From NCBI RefSeq assembly GCF_003018255.1, contig NZ_CP027440.1: a stretch of 64,000 nucleotides of DNA. One strand, given 5' to 3'. This DNA comes from Escherichia coli (GTDB lineage: Bacteria > Pseudomonadota > Gammaproteobacteria > Enterobacterales > Enterobacteriaceae). Under the pieces are notes generated by a model, which was not told the DNA's origin, ran no database searches, and worked only from the letters and a program-made list of their open reading frames with translations. Every line of letters starts with the position of its first letter. Positions within the stretch are counted from its first letter, which is position 1. Positions 20,975 to 35,272 of this stretch are shown here, one piece after another. The translations under genes and the position numbers were made by a program.

Positions 20975-21829
20975 ATGTTGTCCAAACAAATCCCGCTTGG
21001 CATCTATGAAAAAGCGCTCCCCGCCGGGGAGTGCTGGCTGGAACGGCTGCAACTGGCAAAAACGTTAGGCTTCGATTTTGTCGAGATTTCGGTAGATGAA
21101 ACGGACGATCGCCTGTCGCGCCTCGACTGGAGCCGCGAGCAGCGTCTGGCGCTGGTGAACGCGATTGTTGAAACCGGCGTGCGCGTGCCGTCCATGTGCC
21201 TTTCTGCTCATCGTCGTTTCCCGCTGGGCAGCGAAGATGACGCAGTGCGGGCGCAGGGGCTGGAGATTATGCGCAAAGCTATCCAGTTCGCCCAGGATGT
21301 CGGTATTCGCGTGATCCAACTGGCGGGCTACGACGTTTACTATCAGGAAGCCAATAACGAAACGCGTCGTCGTTTCCGTGACGGCCTGAAAGAGAGCGTT
21401 GAGATGGCAAGCCGCGCGCAGGTGACGCTGGCGATGGAGATCATGGATTACCCGTTGATGAACTCCATCAGCAAGGCGCTGGGTTACGCGCACTATCTTA
21501 ACAACCCGTGGTTCCAGCTCTACCCGGATATCGGCAACTTGTCGGCGTGGGACAACGACGTGCAGATGGAGTTGCAGGCCGGGATCGGGCATATCGTCGC
21601 GGTGCATGTGAAAGACACCAAACCAGGCGTCTTCAAAAACGTCCCGTTTGGCGAAGGTGTAGTGGATTTCGAACGTTGCTTCGAAACGCTCAAACAGAGT
21701 GGTTATTGCGGGCCGTACCTGATTGAGATGTGGAGCGAAACGGCGGAAGACCCGGCGGCAGAAGTGGCGAAAGCGCGTGATTGGGTGAAAGCGCGCATGG
21801 CCAAAGCCGGCATGGTGGAGGCGGCATAA
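20975..21829 (+). CDS. ulaE: L-ribulose-5-phosphate 3-epimerase (xylose-isomerase-like TIM barrel)
   Basis: 284 aa [32 protein letters not shown]. Confidence 0.92.
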
Positions 21830-22515
21830 TGCAAAAGCTAAAACAGCAGGTATTTGAAGCCAATATGGATCTGCCGCGCTACGGGCTGGTGACCTTTACC
21901 TGGGGCAACGTCAGCGCCATTGACCGCGAACGCGGGCTGGTGGTGATCAAGCCCAGCGGCGTTGCCTACGAAACCATGAAAGCAGACGATATGGTGGTGG
22001 TTGATATGAGCGGCAAGGTGGTGGAAGGGGAGTATCGTCCGTCTTCCGACACCGCGACGCATCTTGAACTCTACCGCCGTTATCCGTCGCTTGGCGGCAT
22101 TGTCCATACCCATTCCACGCATGCCACCGCATGGGCGCAGGCGGGGCTGGCTATCCCGGCATTAGGCACCACGCACGCTGACTACTTCTTTGGCGATATC
22201 CCCTGTACGCGCGGGTTAAGCGAAGAAGAAGTGCAGGGGGAATACGAGCTAAACACTGGCAAAGTGATTATCGAAACGCTGGGTGACGCCGAGCCGCTGC
22301 ATACGCCGGGAATTGTGGTGTATCAGCACGGGCCATTCGCCTGGGGGAAAGATGCTCACGATGCGGTGCATAACGCGGTGGTGATGGAAGAAGTGGCGAA
22401 AATGGCGTGGATTGCCCGCGGCATTAACCCGCAACTGAATCACATCGACAGCTATCTCATGAATAAACACTTCATGCGTAAGCACGGTCCCAACGCCTAT
22501 TACGGGCAGAAGTAA
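21829..22515 (+). CDS. ulaF: L-ribulose-5-phosphate 4-epimerase
   Basis: ORF track 21781..22515; start at ATG 21829 ([23 protein letters not shown]), 228 aa class II aldolase fold; start overlaps ulaE stop. Confidence 0.92.
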
Positions 22516-22522
22516 AACACGC

Positions 22523-22577
22523 GCTGCGGAGATTTCCTTCTTCGGGAGATAACTGGTCTAAGTCCGCAGCCGTTTTT
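22523..22577 (+). terminator. Putative terminator after ulaF
   Basis: Inverted repeat gctgcgga...tccgcagc followed by cgttttt. Confidence 0.45.
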
Positions 22578-22578
22578 C

Positions 22579-22603
22579 AAAAAAAGCCCCCTGAAAAGGG
22601 GGC
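22579..22603 (-). terminator. Putative terminator of yjfY
   Basis: gccccct/agggggc hairpin with a T-run on the minus strand (A7 on plus strand). Confidence 0.55.
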
Positions 22604-22643
22604 AAAGCAAACTATGGCAATGTTTCGTTGGTTATACCTGGTG

Positions 22644-22919
22644 CTAGCGATAAATATCCGCGCTGGCGTGCATATTGCCGTTACTCCCCGGTTCCCGCAT
22701 CAGAATCACGTGGTAGTACGTTGCGCCCTGCGCATCTGTCTCTTCATTTAATGCCTGACGCGCTTCGCTTTCAGTGGCGAAATTATGATTGATATAAATC
22801 ACGCCTAAGCTTTGCACATCGTCCATATTTCTGGCCTGGTGGTTATTAATTTCAATGGCTGCCCATGTATTTGCACTTAGCAAAAGCACAGCCAGAAGGG
22901 CTAAAACACGGCTGAACAT
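22644..22919 (-). CDS. yjfY: DUF1471 (YhcN-family) secreted protein YjfY
   Basis: 91 aa with signal peptide MFSRVLALLAVLLLSANTWA. Confidence 0.85.
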   Translation of the reverse strand: MFSRVLALLAVLLLSANTWAAIEINNHQARNMDDVQSLGVIYINHNFATESEARQALNEETDAQGATYYHVILMREPGSNGNMHASADIYR

Positions 22920-23228
22920 AGATACCTCCTCGACGGCTGACTTTGTGTGCTCTCCTCTTGTGGTGATCTTCTGATTTAATTTTAATCAATGATAAAGAAG
23001 TGGATGGTGACCATTTCTGATGCAGTTGTTCAAAAAAACACCATGATGAAGTGTGATGAACTTCAAATCAGCGTGTTAGTACGATTTGGTGAAGGATGAG
23101 ATTTATTTGTCGGCTGGCCTTGAGTTTAGCGGGGTATGTCAGTACTATAACGCGTCATTTTTCAGCCGACCTTTAACACGTTCCTTGCCTCCCCGGGATT
23201 CGGCTGACCCAGACAGGAGGCTGAATAA

Positions 23229-23642
<414 letters not shown>

Positions 23643-23648
23643 TTTCTG

Positions 23649-24195
<547 letters not shown>

Positions 24196-24224
24196 TCGGT
24201 CACGGTCCATTAATACGACTTTGA

Positions 24225-24686
<462 letters not shown>

Positions 24687-24710
24687 TTCGTTATTCAACG
24701 AGACGTAAAA

Positions 24711-24740
24711 ACGCCGACCAGTGGTCGGCGTTTTGCTTTT
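24711..24740 (+). terminator. Rho-independent terminator of the rpsF-priB-rpsR-rplI operon
   Basis: acgccgaccagtggtcggcgt hairpin followed by tttgctttt. Confidence 0.85.
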
Positions 24741-25046
24741 AAGTGATAAAAACCGCAGAAACAGACGTTCCCTCCATAAATCTCTTGCTATTCCTTTTAT
24801 AAAAAGTTCGCAGTACCCATACCTGGCCCCCAGCCTCGCCGCTGGTAGTTCGTGTCATGTTTTTTACGCGTAAAACACGACAAAAGCATCAATACAGCGA
24901 TCGTCTCACTTGTATGATAATAAAAACAATATGTTATATATGAATGTGCTGTTATTTTATTGTTTTTATATATAAAAAGATAAAATACCATCACTTTCGT
25001 AATCTTGAACGCTTTGCAGGTGCGTTCAATCCAATAAATGCTAATA

Positions 25047-25067
25047 TTATGGCTATCATAGCCATAA
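25047..25067. promoter_or_regulatory. Perfect 21-bp palindrome, candidate operator of the HTH/HipA-like module
   Basis: TTATGGCTAT-C-ATAGCCATAA (10-bp arms, 1-bp centre) ending 21 bp upstream of the HTH gene start codon. Confidence 0.45.
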
Positions 25068-25087
25068 AAAGATAAAATATTATCACT

Positions 25088-25579
25088 ATGGGTAAAAAAA
25101 CAGCACCGTTACTCCCTTATACGAATCAGATGCTTAGTGAATTTGGTGAGCGGCTGAAACTTGCTCGTTTACGACGCAGGCTTACCGCAAAGCAAGTTGC
25201 TGAACGTGCTGGGATGTCGCCAATAACATTGCGCTCTCTGGAGTCAGGAAGTGCAGGGGTCACGATAGGGGCATATTTGTCTGTGATGCAGGTTTTGGGC
25301 CTGGAAACGGATTTAAATAAGCTTGCAGCTGAAGACGACTTAGGGCGTCAGCTCCAGGATTCCCGTTTGATTAAAAAAAGAGGGCTTTCTCGTGCATCAA
25401 GTAAGAATGAAGAAGGTTCTCAGACAGCCTCATTGCAGATGAGGCACGAGAAAGAAGGTCATCTCACCACGGATTTAACAGCACTGGCAGAAGGCTCGAC
25501 GCCATCTATTACAGGAGAAACATCAACCTCTCTTGCAGCACTATTAAAACCGATAAAAAAACCGTTAAAAGGAAATTAA
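25088..25579 (+). CDS. XRE-family HTH protein, HipB-like putative antitoxin with long C-terminal extension
   Basis: 163 aa; HTH_XRE signature around [32 protein letters not shown]; Ser/Thr/Glu-rich low-complexity C-terminal ~75 aa; stop 25577-25579 is 2 bp before the kinase ATG. Confidence 0.75.
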
Positions 25580-25581
25580 TT

Positions 25582-26850
25582 ATGGCATTAATCGGAGTGT
25601 ATGCGGATTGGGAAGGCCTGGATGGTCCGGAGCGGATTGGTTATTTACACAGTCGCCGCACTCGGACGCGTGAGATATTTGAGTTTGAGTACGATAAAAA
25701 GGCGCTTGCAGATCCTTCACTTAATTTCATTCAGTTAGATCCTGAAATAATGTTGTATGAGGGAGCACACTACCCAATTCCTCCAAAGGATAAATTTGGT
25801 GCATTTAGTGATTCCTGCCCGGATCGTTGGGGGCGTATGCTAATGAAGCGTCGTTTTGAGAGGGATATTCGAGACGGGTTATGTGATAAAGACTCCCACC
25901 TTTATGAGTCTGATTATCTACTAGGTGTTCATGATCTTTATCGGGTTGGGGCCCTTCGATACAAACGTGAAGACGCTGGAGAGTTTCTTGATAATCGCAT
26001 TGATGTTGCAGCCCCACCATTTACCGAAATAGCGAGTCTGGAAAGGGCTAGCCGGGCAATTGAAGAAGATCCTGATAATAAAGAGCTAATGGGGCAAAAA
26101 TGGTTAAGAATGCTAATCGCTCCGGGGGGATCATTAGGGGGGGCACGTCCGAAAGCCAGTGTTGTTGATGAAGCTGGGCATCTCTACATCGCTAAATTTC
26201 CCAGTGTAAAAGATGAGTATGATGTTGGTGGATGGGAAATGGCCGTTAATGCACTTGCTGTTGGCTGTGGACTGAATGTTGCACCTGCTCAGGCGCATAA
26301 ATTTGCCAGCAATTACCATTGTTTTATGGTTCGTCGTTTTGACCGCACTAATGCGGGAAGGCGTCTGCATTTTGCTTCGGCTATGACACTAACCAGGCAT
26401 CAGGATGGTGAAGATGCCTCTACAGGTGTGAGTTATCTGGAATTAGCAGATGTTCTTATCAGGCATGGCGCGCAGACTAATACTGATCTTAAGGAACTCT
26501 GGTCCAGGATTGTTTTTAATATTCTTGTTTCTAATACCGATGATCATTTACGCAATCATGGATTTATCTTGATACCAGGAAAAGGTTGGCGGCTTTCTGA
26601 GGCATATGATTTGAATCCTGTGGTCAGGTCTGATGGTTTAAAACTCAATATTACGGAAAATGACAATGCACTTGATTTGGAATTAGCTAGAGAAGTTGCA
26701 GAGTATTTTCGACTTAGTTTGACGGAAGCTGATGACATTATTGCTAATTTTAGAGGGATTGTCAGTCAGTGGCGAATCATTGCCGAGCGTCTGAGATTAC
26801 CTGGTCGTGAGCAAGAGTTAATGGCAGAGGCATTCAGAGCGTCAATTTAG
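25582..26850 (+). CDS. HipA-family serine/threonine kinase (putative type II toxin)
   Basis: 422 aa; Gly-rich loop GGSLGGARPKAS, catalytic-loop motif NTDDHLRNHG and HipA_C-like C-terminus (DLNPVV...); aaggaa RBS upstream of ATG. Confidence 0.8.
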   Translation: MALIGVYADWEGLDGPERIGYLHSRRTRTREIFEFEYDKKALADPSLNFIQLDPEIMLYEGAHYPIPPKDKFGAFSDSCPDRWGRMLMKRRFERDIRDGLCDKDSHLYESDYLLGVHDLYRVGALRYKREDAGEFLDNRIDVAAPPFTEIASLERASRAIEEDPDNKELMGQKWLRMLIAPGGSLGGARPKASVVDEAGHLYIAKFPSVKDEYDVGGWEMAVNALAVGCGLNVAPAQAHKFASNYHCFMVRRFDRTNAGRRLHFASAMTLTRHQDGEDASTGVSYLELADVLIRHGAQTNTDLKELWSRIVFNILVSNTDDHLRNHGFILIPGKGWRLSEAYDLNPVVRSDGLKLNITENDNALDLELAREVAEYFRLSLTEADDIIANFRGIVSQWRIIAERLRLPGREQELMAEAFRASI

Positions 26851-26947
26851 AATAGTTATTTCGATATATTCGCTAAATCATAAATTTGCGAAGCAATGCC
26901 AGTAGATACTGAACGTTTTGGAAGAGACGTTTAATTTATGAGAAAAA

Positions 26948-26982
26948 TAGAAACGCTACAAAGCTAAATTATAGCGTTTCTA
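26948..26982. terminator. Bidirectional hairpin between the HipA-like gene and the convergent MFS gene
   Basis: tagaaacgct ... agcgtttcta inverted repeat (10-bp stem, ~15-nt loop) in an AT-rich context. Confidence 0.5.
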
Positions 26983-26992
26983 TGTAAAATAA

Positions 26993-28270
26993 TTAGCTTG
27001 TCGCTAACTGTACTTGTGGTTCTTCGTCTTTAACTTTGATAAGCATCCACAGCGCAATGGCGCCAATAATGTCAAAGAAAGCCAGGGCAATAAAGAACGG
27101 CGCGAAGCCAATAATGTGAACGAATGCCCCGATAAACAGGTTGAAAATCAACTGACCGCTCCATGCACAGGCTCCTGCCATACCCACAGCGGTAGCTACT
27201 TCGTCTTTTTTGAATAGGTCACCGCCCAGAGTTGCTGCAACAGTAGAAAGACATTGATGCGAGAATGCGCCAATGCTAATCAGTAATACGGCGATGTAGG
27301 GATTTTCGACAATACTCACCAGACCAATCGTCATCATAATGACGGCTGCAATAGTGAAGGTAATTCTTCGTGAGTTAATTAAACTCACGCCGCGATCGTG
27401 GAAGAACTTCGCGACAAAACCACTGGCTAAACAGCCGAGATCGCCCAGCAGGAAAGGTAGCCAGACGAACATGGCAATTTCTTTCAGGCTAAAATGCAGC
27501 GTTTCGACGAAGAAAATCGGTACCCAGAAGTTAATGGTTCCCCATGCCGGGTCAGCGAGAAAACGCGCGATGCCAATCCCCCAGAAATTACGTTGGCTGA
27601 GGATATGCTTGATTGACGTTTTTTCTTTCTTATCTGTTTTAAGATGCTGTTCTTGCCCAGACTCAATATAGTGGCGCTCTTCATCAGAAAGGCGTTTAGC
27701 ATCTTTTGGATCTTTATAACAAAAGAACCAAAATAAAGCCGCGAGTAAAGCAAGGCTACCTGAGACAATAAACGCAAATTGCCAGCTATGAAACATAATG
27801 CACCAGGCAATCAACGGTGGAGCAAGCATCGCGCCGAGTGAGGTGCCCATATTGAAAACACCTGTCGCCACGCCACGCTCTTTTGCCGGGAACCATGTTG
27901 ATGCGGTTTTTACACCCGCAGGAATTGCCGATGCTTCGCTGAAACCCATCAGGGCGCGCATAAATGCCAGACCTGACCATGTTCCTGTCAAGGCATGCCC
28001 CATTGTCGCCAGGCCCCAGATTGCGGCACATATCGCAAAACTTAACTTCAGACCCACGGTATCAATAAAGAAGCCCATTATCGGTTGCCCCAATGTATAG
28101 GCCAACTGGAATGCACTGACAATCCATGAATATTGTTCTTTGGTTATTCCGGTTGTCTCCATAATCGTTGGAGCCGCAATACCTAACGCCGTTCTGTCCA
28201 GATAATTGATTACAGTGATAAAGCATACGAGGGCAATCATATGCCATCGATAATTCTTTATTTTATTCAT
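26993..28270 (-). CDS. MFS transporter, anion:cation symporter family (ExuT/hexuronate-transporter-like)
   Basis: 425 aa, 12-TM-like hydrophobicity; MNKIKNYRWHMIALVCF...WFPAKERG...KEIAMFVWLP resembles ExuT/DgoT-type sugar-acid transporters as recalled from memory. Confidence 0.8.
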   Translation of the reverse strand: MNKIKNYRWHMIALVCFITVINYLDRTALGIAAPTIMETTGITKEQYSWIVSAFQLAYTLGQPIMGFFIDTVGLKLSFAICAAIWGLATMGHALTGTWSGLAFMRALMGFSEASAIPAGVKTASTWFPAKERGVATGVFNMGTSLGAMLAPPLIAWCIMFHSWQFAFIVSGSLALLAALFWFFCYKDPKDAKRLSDEERHYIESGQEQHLKTDKKEKTSIKHILSQRNFWGIGIARFLADPAWGTINFWVPIFFVETLHFSLKEIAMFVWLPFLLGDLGCLASGFVAKFFHDRGVSLINSRRITFTIAAVIMMTIGLVSIVENPYIAVLLISIGAFSHQCLSTVAATLGGDLFKKDEVATAVGMAGACAWSGQLIFNLFIGAFVHIIGFAPFFIALAFFDIIGAIALWMLIKVKDEEPQVQLATS

Positions 28271-28362
28271 TTTTAAACCTTTTAATTATATTAATAAACC
28301 CTGGTTGTTGGTATTTCCATGTAATAGGCAATAAAAATCAGGTACAGAGGAAATATTGAAAA

Positions 28363-30435
28363 TTATTGTGTGTAAATGTCTCCCTTTAAAAAATCTGGCC
28401 AGTTTTTTTCAAAGTAAATACCGTTAATACACGGTTGCATACGTAAAGACTTTACTTCGGTAATAAAAGAACCTTGCGAATATTGAATTGTTAATTTGTG
28501 ATTTTTGTCTTCAGCGAGTTCAGAGCGAAAACGCCATTCTTCTTTTGCGCCGCGACGAGTTTGTGGTAGGCATTTGCCTTGTGGATCAATAACCATACGC
28601 GCCCCACGGCTACCACCACCAGCATCAATATAATGCGTTAATTGTGTTAATACCGCGGCAGAAGTCAGCGCCATATGCCGCCACATAAACAGCTCGGCAA
28701 CTTCACCCACATGTTTGATTGCCAATCCATGCCGTTGGACAAATTCGTTCAATAGCAGGGCATCACGAGTGGCACGTCGGACTTTATCGGCATGGCAAAT
28801 AAATCCCGCATAGTCAGACATTCGTGCCTGAATTTTTTCTCTCACAACCGACAACGGCATCCCGGTCCCGTTATCGTGCGCCTGAGTAATGATCTCTCTT
28901 ATAGAAGCCAGTGCCGGAGCTACCAGCTGTGCTATATCTCCATCAATATTACGTTTTTGCGTGCAACCAATAAAACGTGCCAGACGAACAGCAAAAACCT
29001 GCCCGGCATTCAATGCCGCACCACCAGGGCGAGTGACGCCGTGTGTGCCAGCAACTTCCCCCACGGCGAAACAGCCGGGCAGGGAGGTTTGTCCCCAGAT
29101 ATCCACTTCAATGCCGCCATTCATATGCTGATTATTCATGGCAAACTGCAAAGGCTGTGTGGTGAGATCGTAACCGTGCATCTTATACAGCGAGATAGAC
29201 AGCGGATTCATTCGTTGCAGCCGTTCGATGGGCGATGGTGCCAGAGCGTCGTTATTTTCCAGATACGCGCGAACGTCGTCGTCCAGTCGATCTAATGAGA
29301 AGGGCAGGTCACCCGGCACCGCTTCAGGATTGCGATTGAAATCCATAAATACCTGACGCCCTGATTGCTGCTCTTGCGCTACAGCCATATCTAACAAGCT
29401 GGAGCCAAACTCCATTACCCGAGTGGCGTGGAACGGCCACTGATAGCCTTTACGAAAAATGTTTGAAGCCAGCTCCTGGGTGGTGCGATAGTAATCCGCG
29501 AGGAAGTTATACTCGTTGCCCCCGGCATCCACGGAATAGATATGTGGGATCACCTGCACATAGGTGCCGGACAAATTCCACGGAAACGTGCTGCGCGGTG
29601 TGCCTATACCAAACTGGCTTTCAGTCAAATTGGTTAGCGTCAGACCTTCTTCCAGCGCCAGCCCCAGCGAGCCGAAACATTTGTGTGGGTACACACTGTC
29701 GCGATAAAGCTCGCCAGGCCCTCCTGTTGCCAGTACCACATTGGGCGCAATCACAATTGCCAGCCCCCATGGGTTATGGACGCGATGACCGGTCGCGAGG
29801 ATAGCCCCCGCCACGCGGTCTTCGCCGTTTTCGTCACGCTGATGCAGCAGTTTAATCACTGTTGCACTGGTCAACATTGGGATAGCAAGACGCTGTACTT
29901 CTTCCAGCAGCACTTTCACCATTAACCTTGAGGTACGTGGCCCACACGAGGTTGCACGCCCGGCTTCGTCATGGTCGGTTTGATAACGAAGAATCGCACC
30001 ATAGCGATCTTCCGGTAATTCCAGACCAAGATATTGCAACCCGCCAAGAGTGTGCAGAGAACCTACCGCTTCGACATAAGCAGTGTCGTGATCCATCGCC
30101 CCACCACTCGCCAGTGCCTCTGCCAGTTTGGTGAAGTTGTCGCCGTTGCCCGCGGTAGCGGCGGTAAACAGCGTCTGTTTATCGGAACCGGAGCAGGCCG
30201 ATGTTCCCATGTATAACCCGGCGGTGGCGATTAACACATTTTGCTGGCGGCGTTTAAGTTCCACAGCTGCACGCAGCCCGGCTGCACCACTGCCGACTAC
30301 CAGGGCATCTGTTTGCCAAAGTGGGTAATCAACACCGTCTACCGTGACAACCCATGCGGGTTCTGCCTGTGCAAAACCCTTTGGGAAAGTAACGTGCGTC
30401 AGCGCATCAAGGATGGTGTCATCAAGCTGACTCAT
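28363..30435 (-). CDS. FAD-dependent oxidoreductase (succinate dehydrogenase/fumarate reductase flavoprotein-like superfamily)
   Basis: 690 aa; N-terminal Rossmann dinucleotide motif VVGSGAAGLRAAVEL; start ATG overlaps the stop of the upstream CoA-transferase gene (ATGA). Confidence 0.7.
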   Translation of the reverse strand: MSQLDDTILDALTHVTFPKGFAQAEPAWVVTVDGVDYPLWQTDALVVGSGAAGLRAAVELKRRQQNVLIATAGLYMGTSACSGSDKQTLFTAATAGNGDNFTKLAEALASGGAMDHDTAYVEAVGSLHTLGGLQYLGLELPEDRYGAILRYQTDHDEAGRATSCGPRTSRLMVKVLLEEVQRLAIPMLTSATVIKLLHQRDENGEDRVAGAILATGHRVHNPWGLAIVIAPNVVLATGGPGELYRDSVYPHKCFGSLGLALEEGLTLTNLTESQFGIGTPRSTFPWNLSGTYVQVIPHIYSVDAGGNEYNFLADYYRTTQELASNIFRKGYQWPFHATRVMEFGSSLLDMAVAQEQQSGRQVFMDFNRNPEAVPGDLPFSLDRLDDDVRAYLENNDALAPSPIERLQRMNPLSISLYKMHGYDLTTQPLQFAMNNQHMNGGIEVDIWGQTSLPGCFAVGEVAGTHGVTRPGGAALNAGQVFAVRLARFIGCTQKRNIDGDIAQLVAPALASIREIITQAHDNGTGMPLSVVREKIQARMSDYAGFICHADKVRRATRDALLLNEFVQRHGLAIKHVGEVAELFMWRHMALTSAAVLTQLTHYIDAGGGSRGARMVIDPQGKCLPQTRRGAKEEWRFRSELAEDKNHKLTIQYSQGSFITEVKSLRMQPCINGIYFEKNWPDFLKGDIYTQ

Positions 30436-31973
30436 GCATCCTCCATCGGCGTAAACAGGCTACTTTCCATCAGGCGTGGGTGCTTGATAATTGGACGGAA
30501 AGCCATATACGGCAGAATGTCGCGCTCAATCTCCACACCCGGCGCGATTTCAATTAATTCAACGCCTTCTGCCGTTAACTGGAATACTGCGCGTTCAGTG
30601 ATATACAGCACTTCCTGACCACTTTGCTGTGCGTAGGCGGCGCTAAAAGTGATTTTTTCCACTTGGGTAACCAGTTTAGGGATTTGACCTGACTGGGCGA
30701 TATGCAGGCCATCAGGCGTTACATCAATCTTGCTGCCTTTGGCGTCAAACGTACCGCAGAACACCACTTTACGGGCGTTTTGCGCAATTTCGAGGAAGCC
30801 GCCGGGGCCAATGAGATTGCCATTGAGATGGGATACGTTGACGTTACCGTACCGATCCATCTCTCCCATGCCGAGGAAGGTGATATCGATACCGCCGCCA
30901 CTGTAGAATTCGAATTGATCGAGTGATGGAATAATGGCGTCGGCGTTACGGGCGCAGCCGAACAGAGCATCATCCAGCATCATGCCGTTATGTACGCCTT
31001 GCTCGACGCTCATCCATAAACTTTGATAAGGCACGCCTTCGCGCAGCGCAACCCCAGGAATACCGCCCGGAATACCAAAGCCAAAGTTGGTTGAAGCGCC
31101 TGCCACCAGTTCCCGTGCTGCCCGACGGGCAATCAGGCGACGCACCGGATGACTAACCAGTTCAATAGCGTCGTTAGAACTTAGACGGCGATGTTGACCG
31201 CTGATCGTCAGGTCGTAACCGCCAAGATAGGTTTGCGGTTGTTCGCGGTGTTCAACGATACCATCGACCAGAATCCCCGGTAGCTTGACCTTGCGAGGTT
31301 CAATGGCGCCAGCTTCCAGTACATCGCGCACCTGTACAAACACTTTGCCGCCACTGTTGTGTGCTGCCAGCGCCATCGAATAGCTATCCATATCAATCGC
31401 TTCTTCTTCGAGGCTAACGTTGCCACGCGGATCGGCATAGGTGCCGCGCAAAATCGCGTAGTCCACTTTGAAAGGGCGATAGCGGAGTTTGGTTTCACCG
31501 TCGATTTCAATCAGTTCTACCAGGTCGTCGGTCGTGCATTCATTCGACTTACCGCCACCATTGCGTGGATCAACAAACGATCCCAGCCCAACGTGGGTAA
31601 AAAGCCCCGGACGTCCGGCACCGATCTCCCGCAGCAGTGCCTGAATTACGCCACCAGGGAAACAGTAGGCTTCAATAGCATTGCTTTTCACCAGTTCCTG
31701 CATCTTGGGCGACCAGGTAAAATGTCCGGCAATAATGCGTTTGAGCATTTCGGCGTGAGCAAAACGGTTAGTGCCTTTGCTGTCGCGATCGCCAATACCC
31801 AGCGAGTGGATTAATGTCAGATCGCGCGGGTGTCCGGTTTGCAGGAAACGCGCTTCAATGGCGGCCATAATATGGTCAGCTTCCACCATACCGCCGCCGT
31901 TACCGCTAATGGCAATGGTTGCGCCGTCCTGAATTTGCGCCGCCAGTGTCTCGGCGGTTGATAACTTACGCAT
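30432..31973 (-). CDS. Family I CoA-transferase, fused alpha/beta subunits (YdiF-like acyl-CoA:acetate CoA-transferase)
   Basis: 513 aa; GSFVDPRNGGGK and YITERAVFQLTAEGVELIEIAPGVEIERDIL closely parallel YdiF motifs as recalled from memory. Confidence 0.75.
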   Translation of the reverse strand: MRKLSTAETLAAQIQDGATIAISGNGGGMVEADHIMAAIEARFLQTGHPRDLTLIHSLGIGDRDSKGTNRFAHAEMLKRIIAGHFTWSPKMQELVKSNAIEAYCFPGGVIQALLREIGAGRPGLFTHVGLGSFVDPRNGGGKSNECTTDDLVELIEIDGETKLRYRPFKVDYAILRGTYADPRGNVSLEEEAIDMDSYSMALAAHNSGGKVFVQVRDVLEAGAIEPRKVKLPGILVDGIVEHREQPQTYLGGYDLTISGQHRRLSSNDAIELVSHPVRRLIARRAARELVAGASTNFGFGIPGGIPGVALREGVPYQSLWMSVEQGVHNGMMLDDALFGCARNADAIIPSLDQFEFYSGGGIDITFLGMGEMDRYGNVNVSHLNGNLIGPGGFLEIAQNARKVVFCGTFDAKGSKIDVTPDGLHIAQSGQIPKLVTQVEKITFSAAYAQQSGQEVLYITERAVFQLTAEGVELIEIAPGVEIERDILPYMAFRPIIKHPRLMESSLFTPMEDA

Positions 31974-33620: not shown

Positions 33621-34412
33621 TCAGAAGCGCGGCATACTTAAGCCGCCGTCGATGGCGACCGCCTGACCACAGGTGTAAATCAGTTTACCTTCCGCCATCG
33701 CGCGGACAGTGGAAGCAATATCAGCCGGATAACCCCAACGTCCCCACGGCACCAGACCTTTGGCAATCAGTTCGTCGTAATAGGCCGTTGCCGGAATAGT
33801 CATATCGGTTTTGATGAGACCAGGACGCACTTCATATACGCCAATTTGTTCATTACAAAGGCGAGCAGCAAATAGACGAGCAGCGGCAGAGACGGCAGTT
33901 TTGGCAATGGTATATTCGCCGCGATTCATCGCCAGCATGATGGCGTTGATGGAACTGACGAAAATAATCGAGCGGTGCGGCAGTTCTGCTTCCGGTTTCG
34001 GCTGTGCCAGTAAGCGCTTACTGAATGCCTGAGCGAGGAAGAACGGTGCGCGGGTGTTAATGGCAATATTTTGGTCGAAGCTGTCTGGTTCGAGGTCGAG
34101 AAGATCACCGCGTTTTTTCACTGAAATGCCTGCGTTGTTGAGCAGGCAGTCCAGACGTCCCCACTGGTTTTGCGCTGCGTCGAGCATCTCTTCATGCAGG
34201 GAGAGATCGCCCACATCAGCAGGGAAGCAAATCACTTCCACGCCTTCCGCCAGACATTCTTGTTGTGTGGCATGTAATTTTTCTACGCTATCCGCATCCG
34301 GACGATCATTAATCAGCAGATTAAATCCGCCACGCGCAAGCTCCAGCGCACAGCCCTTTCCAATACCACGAGCGGCTCCGGTAATCACGGCAACAGGAAG
34401 AGTGGATTTCAT
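33621..34412 (-). CDS. Short-chain dehydrogenase/reductase (SDR)
   Basis: 263 aa; cofactor motif TGAARGIGKG and catalytic YxxxK (YTIAKTAV); first gene of the minus-strand operon. Confidence 0.8.
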   Translation of the reverse strand: MKSTLPVAVITGAARGIGKGCALELARGGFNLLINDRPDADSVEKLHATQQECLAEGVEVICFPADVGDLSLHEEMLDAAQNQWGRLDCLLNNAGISVKKRGDLLDLEPDSFDQNIAINTRAPFFLAQAFSKRLLAQPKPEAELPHRSIIFVSSINAIMLAMNRGEYTIAKTAVSAAARLFAARLCNEQIGVYEVRPGLIKTDMTIPATAYYDELIAKGLVPWGRWGYPADIASTVRAMAEGKLIYTCGQAVAIDGGLSMPRF

Positions 34413-34624: not shown

Positions 34625-35272
34625 ATGTATCTTGATACCAGCAACGTACAGAGCCTGAAAGAAAAGCTGCTGTTATGCGCGGTTAATGAATTTGCCGAAT
34701 ATGGTTACGAAGGGGCCAGAGTCGATAATATCGTCAAGGCCGCGGGGTGCAGTAAACAGACGGTTTATCACCACTTTGGTAATAAAGAAAATTTATTTAT
34801 CGAAGTACTGGAATATACCTGGAACGATATTCGACAAAAAGAAAAGGCCCTTGATTTCTCAGATCTTCCGCCACAGAAAGCCATTGAGAAAATAATCGAT
34901 TTTACATGGGATTATTATATTTCTAATCCCTGGTTTTTAAAAATTGTGCATAGTGAAAATCAAAGTAAGGGTGTGCATTATGCAAAGTCACAGCGTCTTT
35001 TAGAAATTAACCATGCGCACTTGCAGTTAATGGAATCCTTATTGGATGAAGGGAAGAAAAACAATATTTTTAAGCCAGATATCGACCCATTGCAGGTGAA
35101 TATTAATATTGCTGCGCTTGGGGGATATTATTTGATCAACCAGCATACGCTTGGTCTGGTTTATCACATCAGTATGGTTTCACCCCAGGCACTGGAAGCC
35201 AGACGTAAGGTCATCAAAGAGACAATCCTTAGCTGGCTTTTGGTTGACCCTTCATCTACCGCGCGCGAATAA
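34625..35272 (+). CDS. TetR/AcrR-family transcriptional regulator
   Basis: ORF track 34553..35272 begins at a TTG; ATG at 34625 with ggggaag RBS is more plausible (215 aa); TetR_N HTH ([27 protein letters not shown]). Confidence 0.75.

Follow-up and report, generated by a model that had tools for sequence, protein, structure and literature searches.

Between the rplI terminator and a toxin-antitoxin (TA) gene pair of Escherichia coli lie 347 bp that are unannotated in the RefSeq genomes among the matches listed, and their low content of guanine and cytosine (GC) raises the question of whether they are a leftover of DNA insertion or a functional element. We addressed this question in a 64,000-nucleotide stretch of an E. 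coli chromosome (contig NZ_CP027440.1), hereafter the window, in which the tract spans positions 24741-25087. A preliminary description had read it as the markedly AT-rich left edge of a horizontally acquired cassette, holding the TA promoter together with an integration scar. Comparison with homologous loci suggests that the AT-rich right half (~24891-25087) is very probably the self-regulated promoter-operator region of the operon encoding an XRE antitoxin and a HipA-like kinase, hipA-2/xre-3. The gene pair itself has already been catalogued; what is new is a putative TA operator-promoter whose boxes have a sequence of their own and whose geometry is unusually rigid, so that a vague "AT-rich junction" gives way to a map of four boxes and candidate promoters (Table 1).

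Four boxes form two dyad units upstream of the antitoxin gene

The tract adjoins the antitoxin ATG of a bicistronic antitoxin-toxin operon, in which a gene of the helix-turn-helix (HTH) family HTH_31 is followed, after 2 nt, by a kinase gene of the HipA_C family. The AT-rich half contains four 16-bp boxes, O1-O4, with the consensus GTGCTAATATTCTGGC and an invariant T-A-T-T core. They pair into two dyad units of 49 bp, each consisting of a 16-bp box, a 17-bp spacer and an inverted 16-bp box. When the window was scanned with a position matrix built from 26 loci outside E. coli, the top two scores in the 64 kb were O3 and O4, and O1 and O2 were found to repeat their spacing and geometry exactly, at lower scores. 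A dyad pattern written in IUPAC code matched these two units only in the window, where 0.03 matches are expected by chance. The boxes are real and specific. Repeat analysis detected long imperfect inverted repeats as well as a 24-nt direct repeat, D1 (24972-24995 and 25064-25087), whose copies are 92% identical. These copies are boxes O2 and O4, and since the two-unit layout recurs in other genera, the repeat is simply a consequence of having both units.

We collected 80 loci from other genera that code for a kinase homolog (47-81% identity) and, in each, identified the HTH gene upstream of it. The ~50 nt leading up to the antitoxin ATG have a common arrangement in these loci: GTGCTAATATTCTGGC is followed by a 17-bp spacer and the box in inverted form, and the ATG comes 0-2 nt later. 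Some 40 proteobacterial loci carry the unit, each exactly 49 bp long, including those of Atlantibacter, Serratia, Erwinia, Pantoea, Azotobacter, Pseudomonas, Burkholderia, Alcaligenes and Comamonas; the background rate is 9e-5 hits per position-strand. The proximal unit occupies -50 to -2 relative to the ATG in nearly all of these loci, its first position being -50 (+/-1) in most and -54 in three. In most, its right arm ends at -1 to -3 and a second 49-bp unit lies 67-156 bp further upstream. With plasmid-borne homologs from Pantoea and Azotobacter, the alignment to the tract begins at the left edge of unit 2, at 25030-25037 (query positions 291-298). Homologs in Bacteroidota have another box sequence and a like design, with a dyad spanning about -53 to -1. 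Their promoter box, TAnnTTTG, sits between the dyad arms, and in 15 of 30 loci the distance from its end to the ATG is exactly 18 nt. The conserved units and the dyad around the phylum's own promoter box fit a promoter operated by the antitoxin.

Conservation at closer range follows the boxes. E. albertii has both dyad units, and neither O3 nor O4 differs from the window in E. albertii or in Serratia. Identity to E. albertii is 94% for unit 2, as against 74% for the inter-unit spacer; the figures for unit 1 and for 24891-24945 are 82% and 86%. Among six E. coli strains, no single-nucleotide polymorphism (SNP) falls in 24996-25147, and the SNPs of the AT-rich half lie in or beside the distal unit, at 24947 (O1), 24978 and 24988 (O2). 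Given boxes at fixed positions from the antitoxin ATG across genera, the earlier expectation that the tract contains the TA promoter is very probably right, and operators would have to be added to it.

Candidate promoters and a predicted short leader

Within the proximal unit we identified a candidate sigma-70 promoter that matches the consensus at 8 of 12 positions, below the threshold of our consensus scan, and whose predicted start lies 2-4 nt before the ATG. Its -10 hexamer, TAAAAT, occupies -15 to -10 relative to the ATG, and two further -10-like hexamers within O4 follow at -12 to -7 (AATATT) and -10 to -5 (TATTAT). The sequence has the features of a leaderless type, with a -10-like element about 7 nt before the ATG and no Shine-Dalgarno (SD)-like 4-mer in -16 to -5. 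Both features recur among 47 proteobacterial loci: 40 have a -10-like hexamer whose end lies 5-9 nt upstream of the ATG, and 31, all Enterobacterales loci included, lack an SD-like 4-mer in -16 to -5. O3 holds a second candidate, an extended -10-like element, and the motif TGnTAnnnT is present in the O3-equivalent box of 39 of the 47 loci.

Of these two candidates we lean slightly toward the O4 hexamers as the -10 element, which would give an mRNA that is leaderless or has a leader of 2-4 nt. This preference is based on the 31 of 47 loci that lack an SD sequence, on a box-to-ATG distance frozen across orders, and on the position of the Bacteroidota promoter box between the dyad arms. The antitoxin is therefore predicted to be translated from an mRNA with a very short leader or none.

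Proposed mechanism and comparison with known systems

Our findings suggest a model in which the boxes are binding sites for the HTH antitoxin, acting either on its own or as a complex with the kinase. Bound antitoxin would occlude RNA polymerase and repress its own operon, by analogy with canonical HipB at its four operators. The proximal unit would bracket the core promoter, and the distal unit would serve as a weaker, auxiliary pair. Transcription would start inside or just after O4 and yield an mRNA that is leaderless or has a very short leader, with no SD sequence; such a start would account for the constant distance between box and ATG from genus to genus. More tentatively, and with less confidence than in the promoter choice, we propose that the 49-bp dyad, the embedded -10 element and the start codon form an indivisible module that travels with the TA cassette, O4 being repressor site, -10 element and start at once. 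If true, the antitoxin mRNA would be leaderless and independent of any ribosome-binding site particular to the host. The module would also explain why the geometry stays constant from Enterobacterales to Burkholderiales and has a mirror image in Bacteroidota, as well as the function of the cassette after transfer across phyla.

In E. coli K-12, HipB represses its own operon from four operators, O1-O4, with the sequence TATCC-N8-GGATA, in the hipBA promoter. The architecture of the tract is similar. A promoter region precedes an XRE-type antitoxin gene, which is followed by a HipA-family kinase gene; four repeated dyad-type sites are arranged as two pairs, the proximal of which would overlap the core promoter region; and autorepression is expected by analogy. 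There are also differences. The boxes of the tract are unrelated in sequence, and TATCC-N8-GGATA does not occur there; they are 16 bp long, in inverted pairs 33 bp apart from centre to centre within a fixed 49-bp unit; and the last box abuts the start codon, leaving no space for an SD sequence. The antitoxin, with 163 aa and a long C-terminal extension, compares with 88 aa for HipB, and the kinase is distant from K-12 HipA.

A 153-aa "XRE family transcriptional regulator, HipB" with a solved structure (PDB 9u9g) aligns with antitoxin residues 1-99 at an expect value (E) of 1e-30; a literature search found no paper for this entry. The kinase has no HipA match in the PDB at E<=1e-3, matching HipT-type chains only, with a weak match to YjjJ, and it is a distant member of the HipA superfamily.

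A second parallel, offered here as a lead, is that of phage lambda, in which cI, an XRE-fold repressor, is expressed from P_RM as a leaderless mRNA beside its own operators. Here too the ATG of an XRE-fold repressor would lie next to promoter-overlapping operators with no SD sequence. The 16-bp boxes in 49-bp dyads nevertheless differ from lambda's 17-bp tandem operators, and the locus shows no sign of activation or of a bistable switch.

The gene pair has been catalogued as hipA-2/xre-3 (TA28) in NRG857c, an adherent-invasive E. coli (AIEC) strain (Bustamante & Vidal, 2020; PMC7232551), at the same locus as the TA pair of the window. In the relevant passages, that study places it between ribosomal protein genes and a fatty-acid metabolism cluster, and reports it as absent from K-12 and as pseudogenes, for both genes, in CFT073. 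The same passages deal with genes and mRNA and include no upstream tract, boxes or cassette boundaries, and our literature search found no description of the hipA-2/xre-3 promoter or of operators of the subfamily. The operon is an uncharacterised HipA-like TA system present in about one-fifth of complete E. coli genomes, including uropathogenic E. coli (UPEC) and AIEC; UTI89 and NRG857c are among its carriers. The exact box coordinates provide targets for binding and reporter work, and the operator consensus can be used to find and annotate promoters of this TA subfamily in other bacteria.

Several observations weigh against a self-regulated promoter-operator region. The operator function proposed for the boxes is drawn from comparison only, and the analogy with HipB is one of architecture, not of sequence: the canonical operator TATCC-N8-GGATA had no match in 24741-25087 at <=2 mismatches. 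The consensus sigma-70 scan of the tract found no promoter on the plus strand. The two candidate promoters compete, with the extended -10 element in O3 equally conserved (39/47), and its use would mean a leader of ~34 nt in place of a leaderless mRNA. In the distal unit, O1 and O2 are degenerate in E. coli and polymorphic among its strains (at 24947 and 24988, respectively), and three unrelated sites in the window score as high as either of them taken singly. Finally, the model does not extend to the left 150 bp of the tract, which are somewhat better conserved between the window and E. albertii than the third codon positions of HipA (92.7% vs 84.6%).

Table 1. Features of the tract and its surroundings (window positions; boxes scored with the matrix from 26 non-E. 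coli loci).
Feature	Position	Strand	Description
Unit 1 (distal)	24946-24994		49 bp; O1 + O2
Unit 2 (proximal)	25038-25086		49 bp; O3 + O4; ends 1 nt before antitoxin ATG (25088)
Box O1	24946..24961	+	GTGCTGTTATTTTATT; left arm of distal unit; 14.6 bits
Box O2	24979..24994	-	minus-strand GTGATGGTATTTTATC; right arm of distal unit; 13.9 bits
Box O3	25038..25053	+	ATGCTAATATTATGGC; left arm of proximal unit; 21.7 bits
Box O4	25071..25086	-	minus-strand GTGATAATATTTTATC, plus-strand GATAAAATATTATCAC; right arm of proximal unit; 20.8 bits
Candidate sigma-70 promoter	25050..25078	+	TGGCTA (25050-25055), 17-bp spacer, TAAAAT (25073-25078); read from sequence
Other -10-like hexamers	25076-25081; 25078-25083	+	AATATT; TATTAT; within O4
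Extended -10-like element	25039-25047	+	TGcTAATAT; inside O3
AT-rich core	24891..25087	+	putative operator-promoter region of the operon
Antitoxin gene xre-3	25088..25579	+	XRE/HTH_31; 163 aa
Toxin gene hipA-2	25582..26850	+	HipA_C kinase; 422 aa
Whole TA cassette	24740..26947	+	tract, XRE antitoxin gene, HipA-like kinase gene, 97-bp tail
Left segment	24740..24890	.	44.7% GC
Conserved inverted repeat	24853..24882	.	TGTCATGTTTT-N8-AAAACACGACA; repeat analysis
Inter-unit spacer	24995..25037	.	least conserved segment
Inverted repeat	25005-25029		TTGAACGC-N9-GCGTTCAA; E. coli-specific; inside inter-unit spacer
Perfect inner palindrome	25047..25067	.	TTATGGCTAT-C-ATAGCCATAA; overlaps O3 and 17-bp spacer of unit 2
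31-aa open reading frame	25086->24991	-	GTG start; hydrophobic helix and basic tail, resembling a type I toxin
rplI stop	24686		end of rpsF-priB-rpsR-rplI operon, E. coli chromosome
rplI intrinsic terminator hairpin	24708..24734	+	13-nt arms, 100% complementary; U/T runs on both sides

Base composition and possible silencing by H-NS

Over the whole tract, GC content is 34.6%, compared with 51.5% for the window, which places the tract in the lowest 0.7% of 347-bp windows. The preliminary description, whose coordinates and two quoted AT runs (24917-24946 and 24960-24989) were correct, had extended the marked AT-richness over all ~350 bp. That statement applies to about 200 bp: 24891-25087, at 26.9% GC, is the lowest 197-bp stretch in the 64 kb (0.06 percentile), whereas 24741-24890, at 44.7% GC, falls at the 15th percentile and is unremarkable. 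Operator boxes also make AT-rich patches in the GC-rich loci of Pseudomonas and Burkholderia. Because the boxes largely account for the AT-richness, in GC-rich genera as well, foreign composition is unnecessary as an explanation.

The protein H-NS prefers AT-rich DNA, and the most AT-rich stretch of the window, 197 bp long, might be an H-NS-bound, silenced region. This would be compatible with the operator model, and we consider it unlikely, though the most plausible of the alternatives. Against it, conservation is box-specific rather than compositional, and hipA-2 mRNA is reported, in the relevant passages of the NRG857c study, to be detectable, to rise 8- to 32-fold with bile salts and to be induced in macrophages (PMC7232551). 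This induction shows that the promoter is not permanently silent.

A multi-allelic slot, and probably no integration scar

Whether the tract marks the scar of an insertion was assessed by comparing 5426 complete E. coli genomes. The rplI side matched in all but one of them, and the tract continued in 1046 (19%), always as a single chromosomal copy; the sole "plasmid" match in E. coli is an 834-kb record that is probably chromosomal, and the cassette had no counterpart in a phage collection. The remaining genomes, K-12 derivatives included, lose the match at 24739/24740, and a distant-mode search with the tract found no part of it aligning in K-12-type genomes. The check proposed earlier, in which full alignment to the K-12 intergenic DNA would have refuted the description, left the tract unaligned and located the breakpoint, and the tract is indeed the left edge of a strain-variable cassette. 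Its absence from 81% of the genomes and the sharpness of the breakpoint are what would be expected if the AT-rich DNA were the foreign-composition leftover of a TA insertion beside rplI, and homologous TA modules on Pantoea and Azotobacter plasmids, scattered across phyla, imply horizontal movement at some point.

We nevertheless regard a scar or recent horizontal junction as improbable. Comparison of the cassette ends (24740-26947) revealed no flanking direct repeats, and neither an integrase nor a tRNA gene appears in the annotation or the gene calls surrounding the cassette, with no dedicated tRNA scan run. In E. albertii the site is occupied by the same tract, TA pair and operon, the identity being roughly 90%, so the insertion is not recent. 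The AT-rich part is made of conserved functional boxes, and it is confined to 24891-25087, away from the junction.

The junctions, moreover, are shared. Assemblies with an identical RplI protein show three arrangements, in which rplI is followed by yjfZ and an operon encoding a major facilitator superfamily (MFS) transporter, by a tripartite ATP-independent periplasmic (TRAP) transporter, or by the TA pair and the MFS operon. Two loci with yjfZ and the MFS operon (L091 and L084) follow the window as far as 24739 and rejoin it at 26948, so that the TA cassette, 2.2 kb long, is exactly 24740-26947. The left junction, 24739/24740, is common to the TA cassette, the 1.04-kb yjfZ cassette and the TRAP-transporter cassette (L087, DctPQM), while the right junction, 26947/26948, beside the terminator of the MFS operon, is common to the TA and yjfZ cassettes. 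The TA cassette is bordered on the left by the rplI terminator and on the right by that of the convergent MFS operon, so that both its edges abut terminators. The rplI terminator is the left boundary of a variable slot, which is multi-allelic and bounded by two terminators, and whose alleles are probably swapped when the core genes on either side undergo homologous recombination.

It is the K-12 arrangement that is the decayed one. K-12 (L002) has yjfZ after rplI, and homology to the window returns at 34870, inside a TetR gene. The adjacent catabolic operon has a full-length TetR regulator, of which the truncated K-12 ytfA (L002 7117-7625) is the C-terminal remnant; K-12 also keeps a 102-bp relic of a ketoacyl-reductase gene, at 79% identity (window 34222-34323). 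The K-12 arrangement is the decayed state of a diverged island. The evolutionary reading is corrected accordingly, from a recent insertion scar to a multi-allelic slot between two terminators that has decayed in K-12, and the tract is read as an ordinary regulatory region.

A product encoded by the tract itself and other alternatives

The tract might instead encode a product of its own. One candidate is a minus-strand small RNA (~24910 to 24705), the other a hydrophobic small peptide read from 25086 to 24991. In favour of the RNA, there is a minus-strand promoter-like site, TTCATA-16-TATTAT (24944->24917), and the rplI terminator is potentially bidirectional, given the U/T runs on either side; a divergent RNA of ~210 nt ending at this terminator is possible, if unsupported. 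Folding against shuffled sequences gave z = -2.55 for the minus strand (24741-24912) and z = -0.79 for the plus strand (24741-24945). The conserved inverted repeat at 24853-24882, which could be a hairpin or a binding site, is kept in E. albertii and in E. coli strain EC23HZZ201. The number of promoter-like sites is not above chance, however (1 found, 1.5 expected). The inverted repeat has one single-sided change (G-U to A-U on the minus strand) and no compensatory changes in the three sequences compared, on which ground a structured RNA in the left part was rejected. Rfam gives only AgrB there, at 24705-24762 (-); with 29.8 bits this match falls short of the gathering score of 40, and it covers the rplI terminator hairpin.

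As for peptides, eight open reading frames (ORFs) of 21-65 aa overlap the tract. When ORFs of at least 20 aa were checked against E. albertii, EC23HZZ201 and Pfam, none was convincing: all are broken or changed by indels in the two relatives, and the Pfam search of the eight gave no match. The earlier statement that the tract holds no credible ORF is therefore upheld. The 31-aa minus-strand ORF stays open in E. albertii (29 aa), but it begins with GTG, has no SD sequence and no Pfam family, and is cut short in Serratia (6 codons) and in Atlantibacter (17 codons). T-rich dyads give hydrophobic codons by default, and this ORF is probably a by-product of the dyad. On balance, a product encoded by the tract is as improbable as the scar.

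Least probable of all, and rejected, is the reading of the 24-bp direct repeat as a 92-bp duplication or an inserted miniature inverted-repeat transposable element (MITE) or similar small mobile element in place of regulatory sites: its copies are 92% identical and EC23HZZ201 lacks exactly the 92 bp between them, but the copies are O2 and O4 of a two-unit layout found in other genera with different spacers, E. albertii has both units, and the deletion in EC23HZZ201 is best read as secondary.

Related observations at the locus

In EC23HZZ201 (L003 6001-7232), which carries a diverged allele of the island, the tract is 88.8% and the MFS operon 77.6% identical to the window, with an extra MaoC gene as in E. 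albertii. The deletion between the direct-repeat copies leaves a hybrid single unit, O1 joined to O4, which is best explained by recombination of O2 with O4. The hipA gene of this strain is also internally deleted (fragments of 81 and 78 aa), while its antitoxin gene is intact. The closest complete genome, strain 104 (L001), has a tract 100% identical to that of the window and a hipA annotated as frameshifted (20983-22250), whereas the copy in the window is an intact ORF of 422 aa. It seems that the toxin gene often decays while the antitoxin gene and the operators persist.

The left 150 bp of the tract are 92.7% identical to E. albertii. The left segment was found in Escherichia only, the left 200 bp having no homology in the TA loci of other genera, and the left 150-200 bp appear to be an Escherichia-specific spacer. 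Within unit 2, the inner palindrome at 25047-25067 keeps 7 of its 10 arm positions in E. albertii and is absent in Serratia.

The operator-box matrix also gave unpaired matches at 30925-30940 (-) with 17.2 bits and at 34060-34075 (+) with 15.3 bits; both lie inside genes of the neighbouring catabolic operon and are probably due to chance. An Rfam scan of 22500-28500 returned one real match, the RpsF leader (RF02893, 110 bits) at 23165-23249, upstream of rpsF, as expected for that operon.

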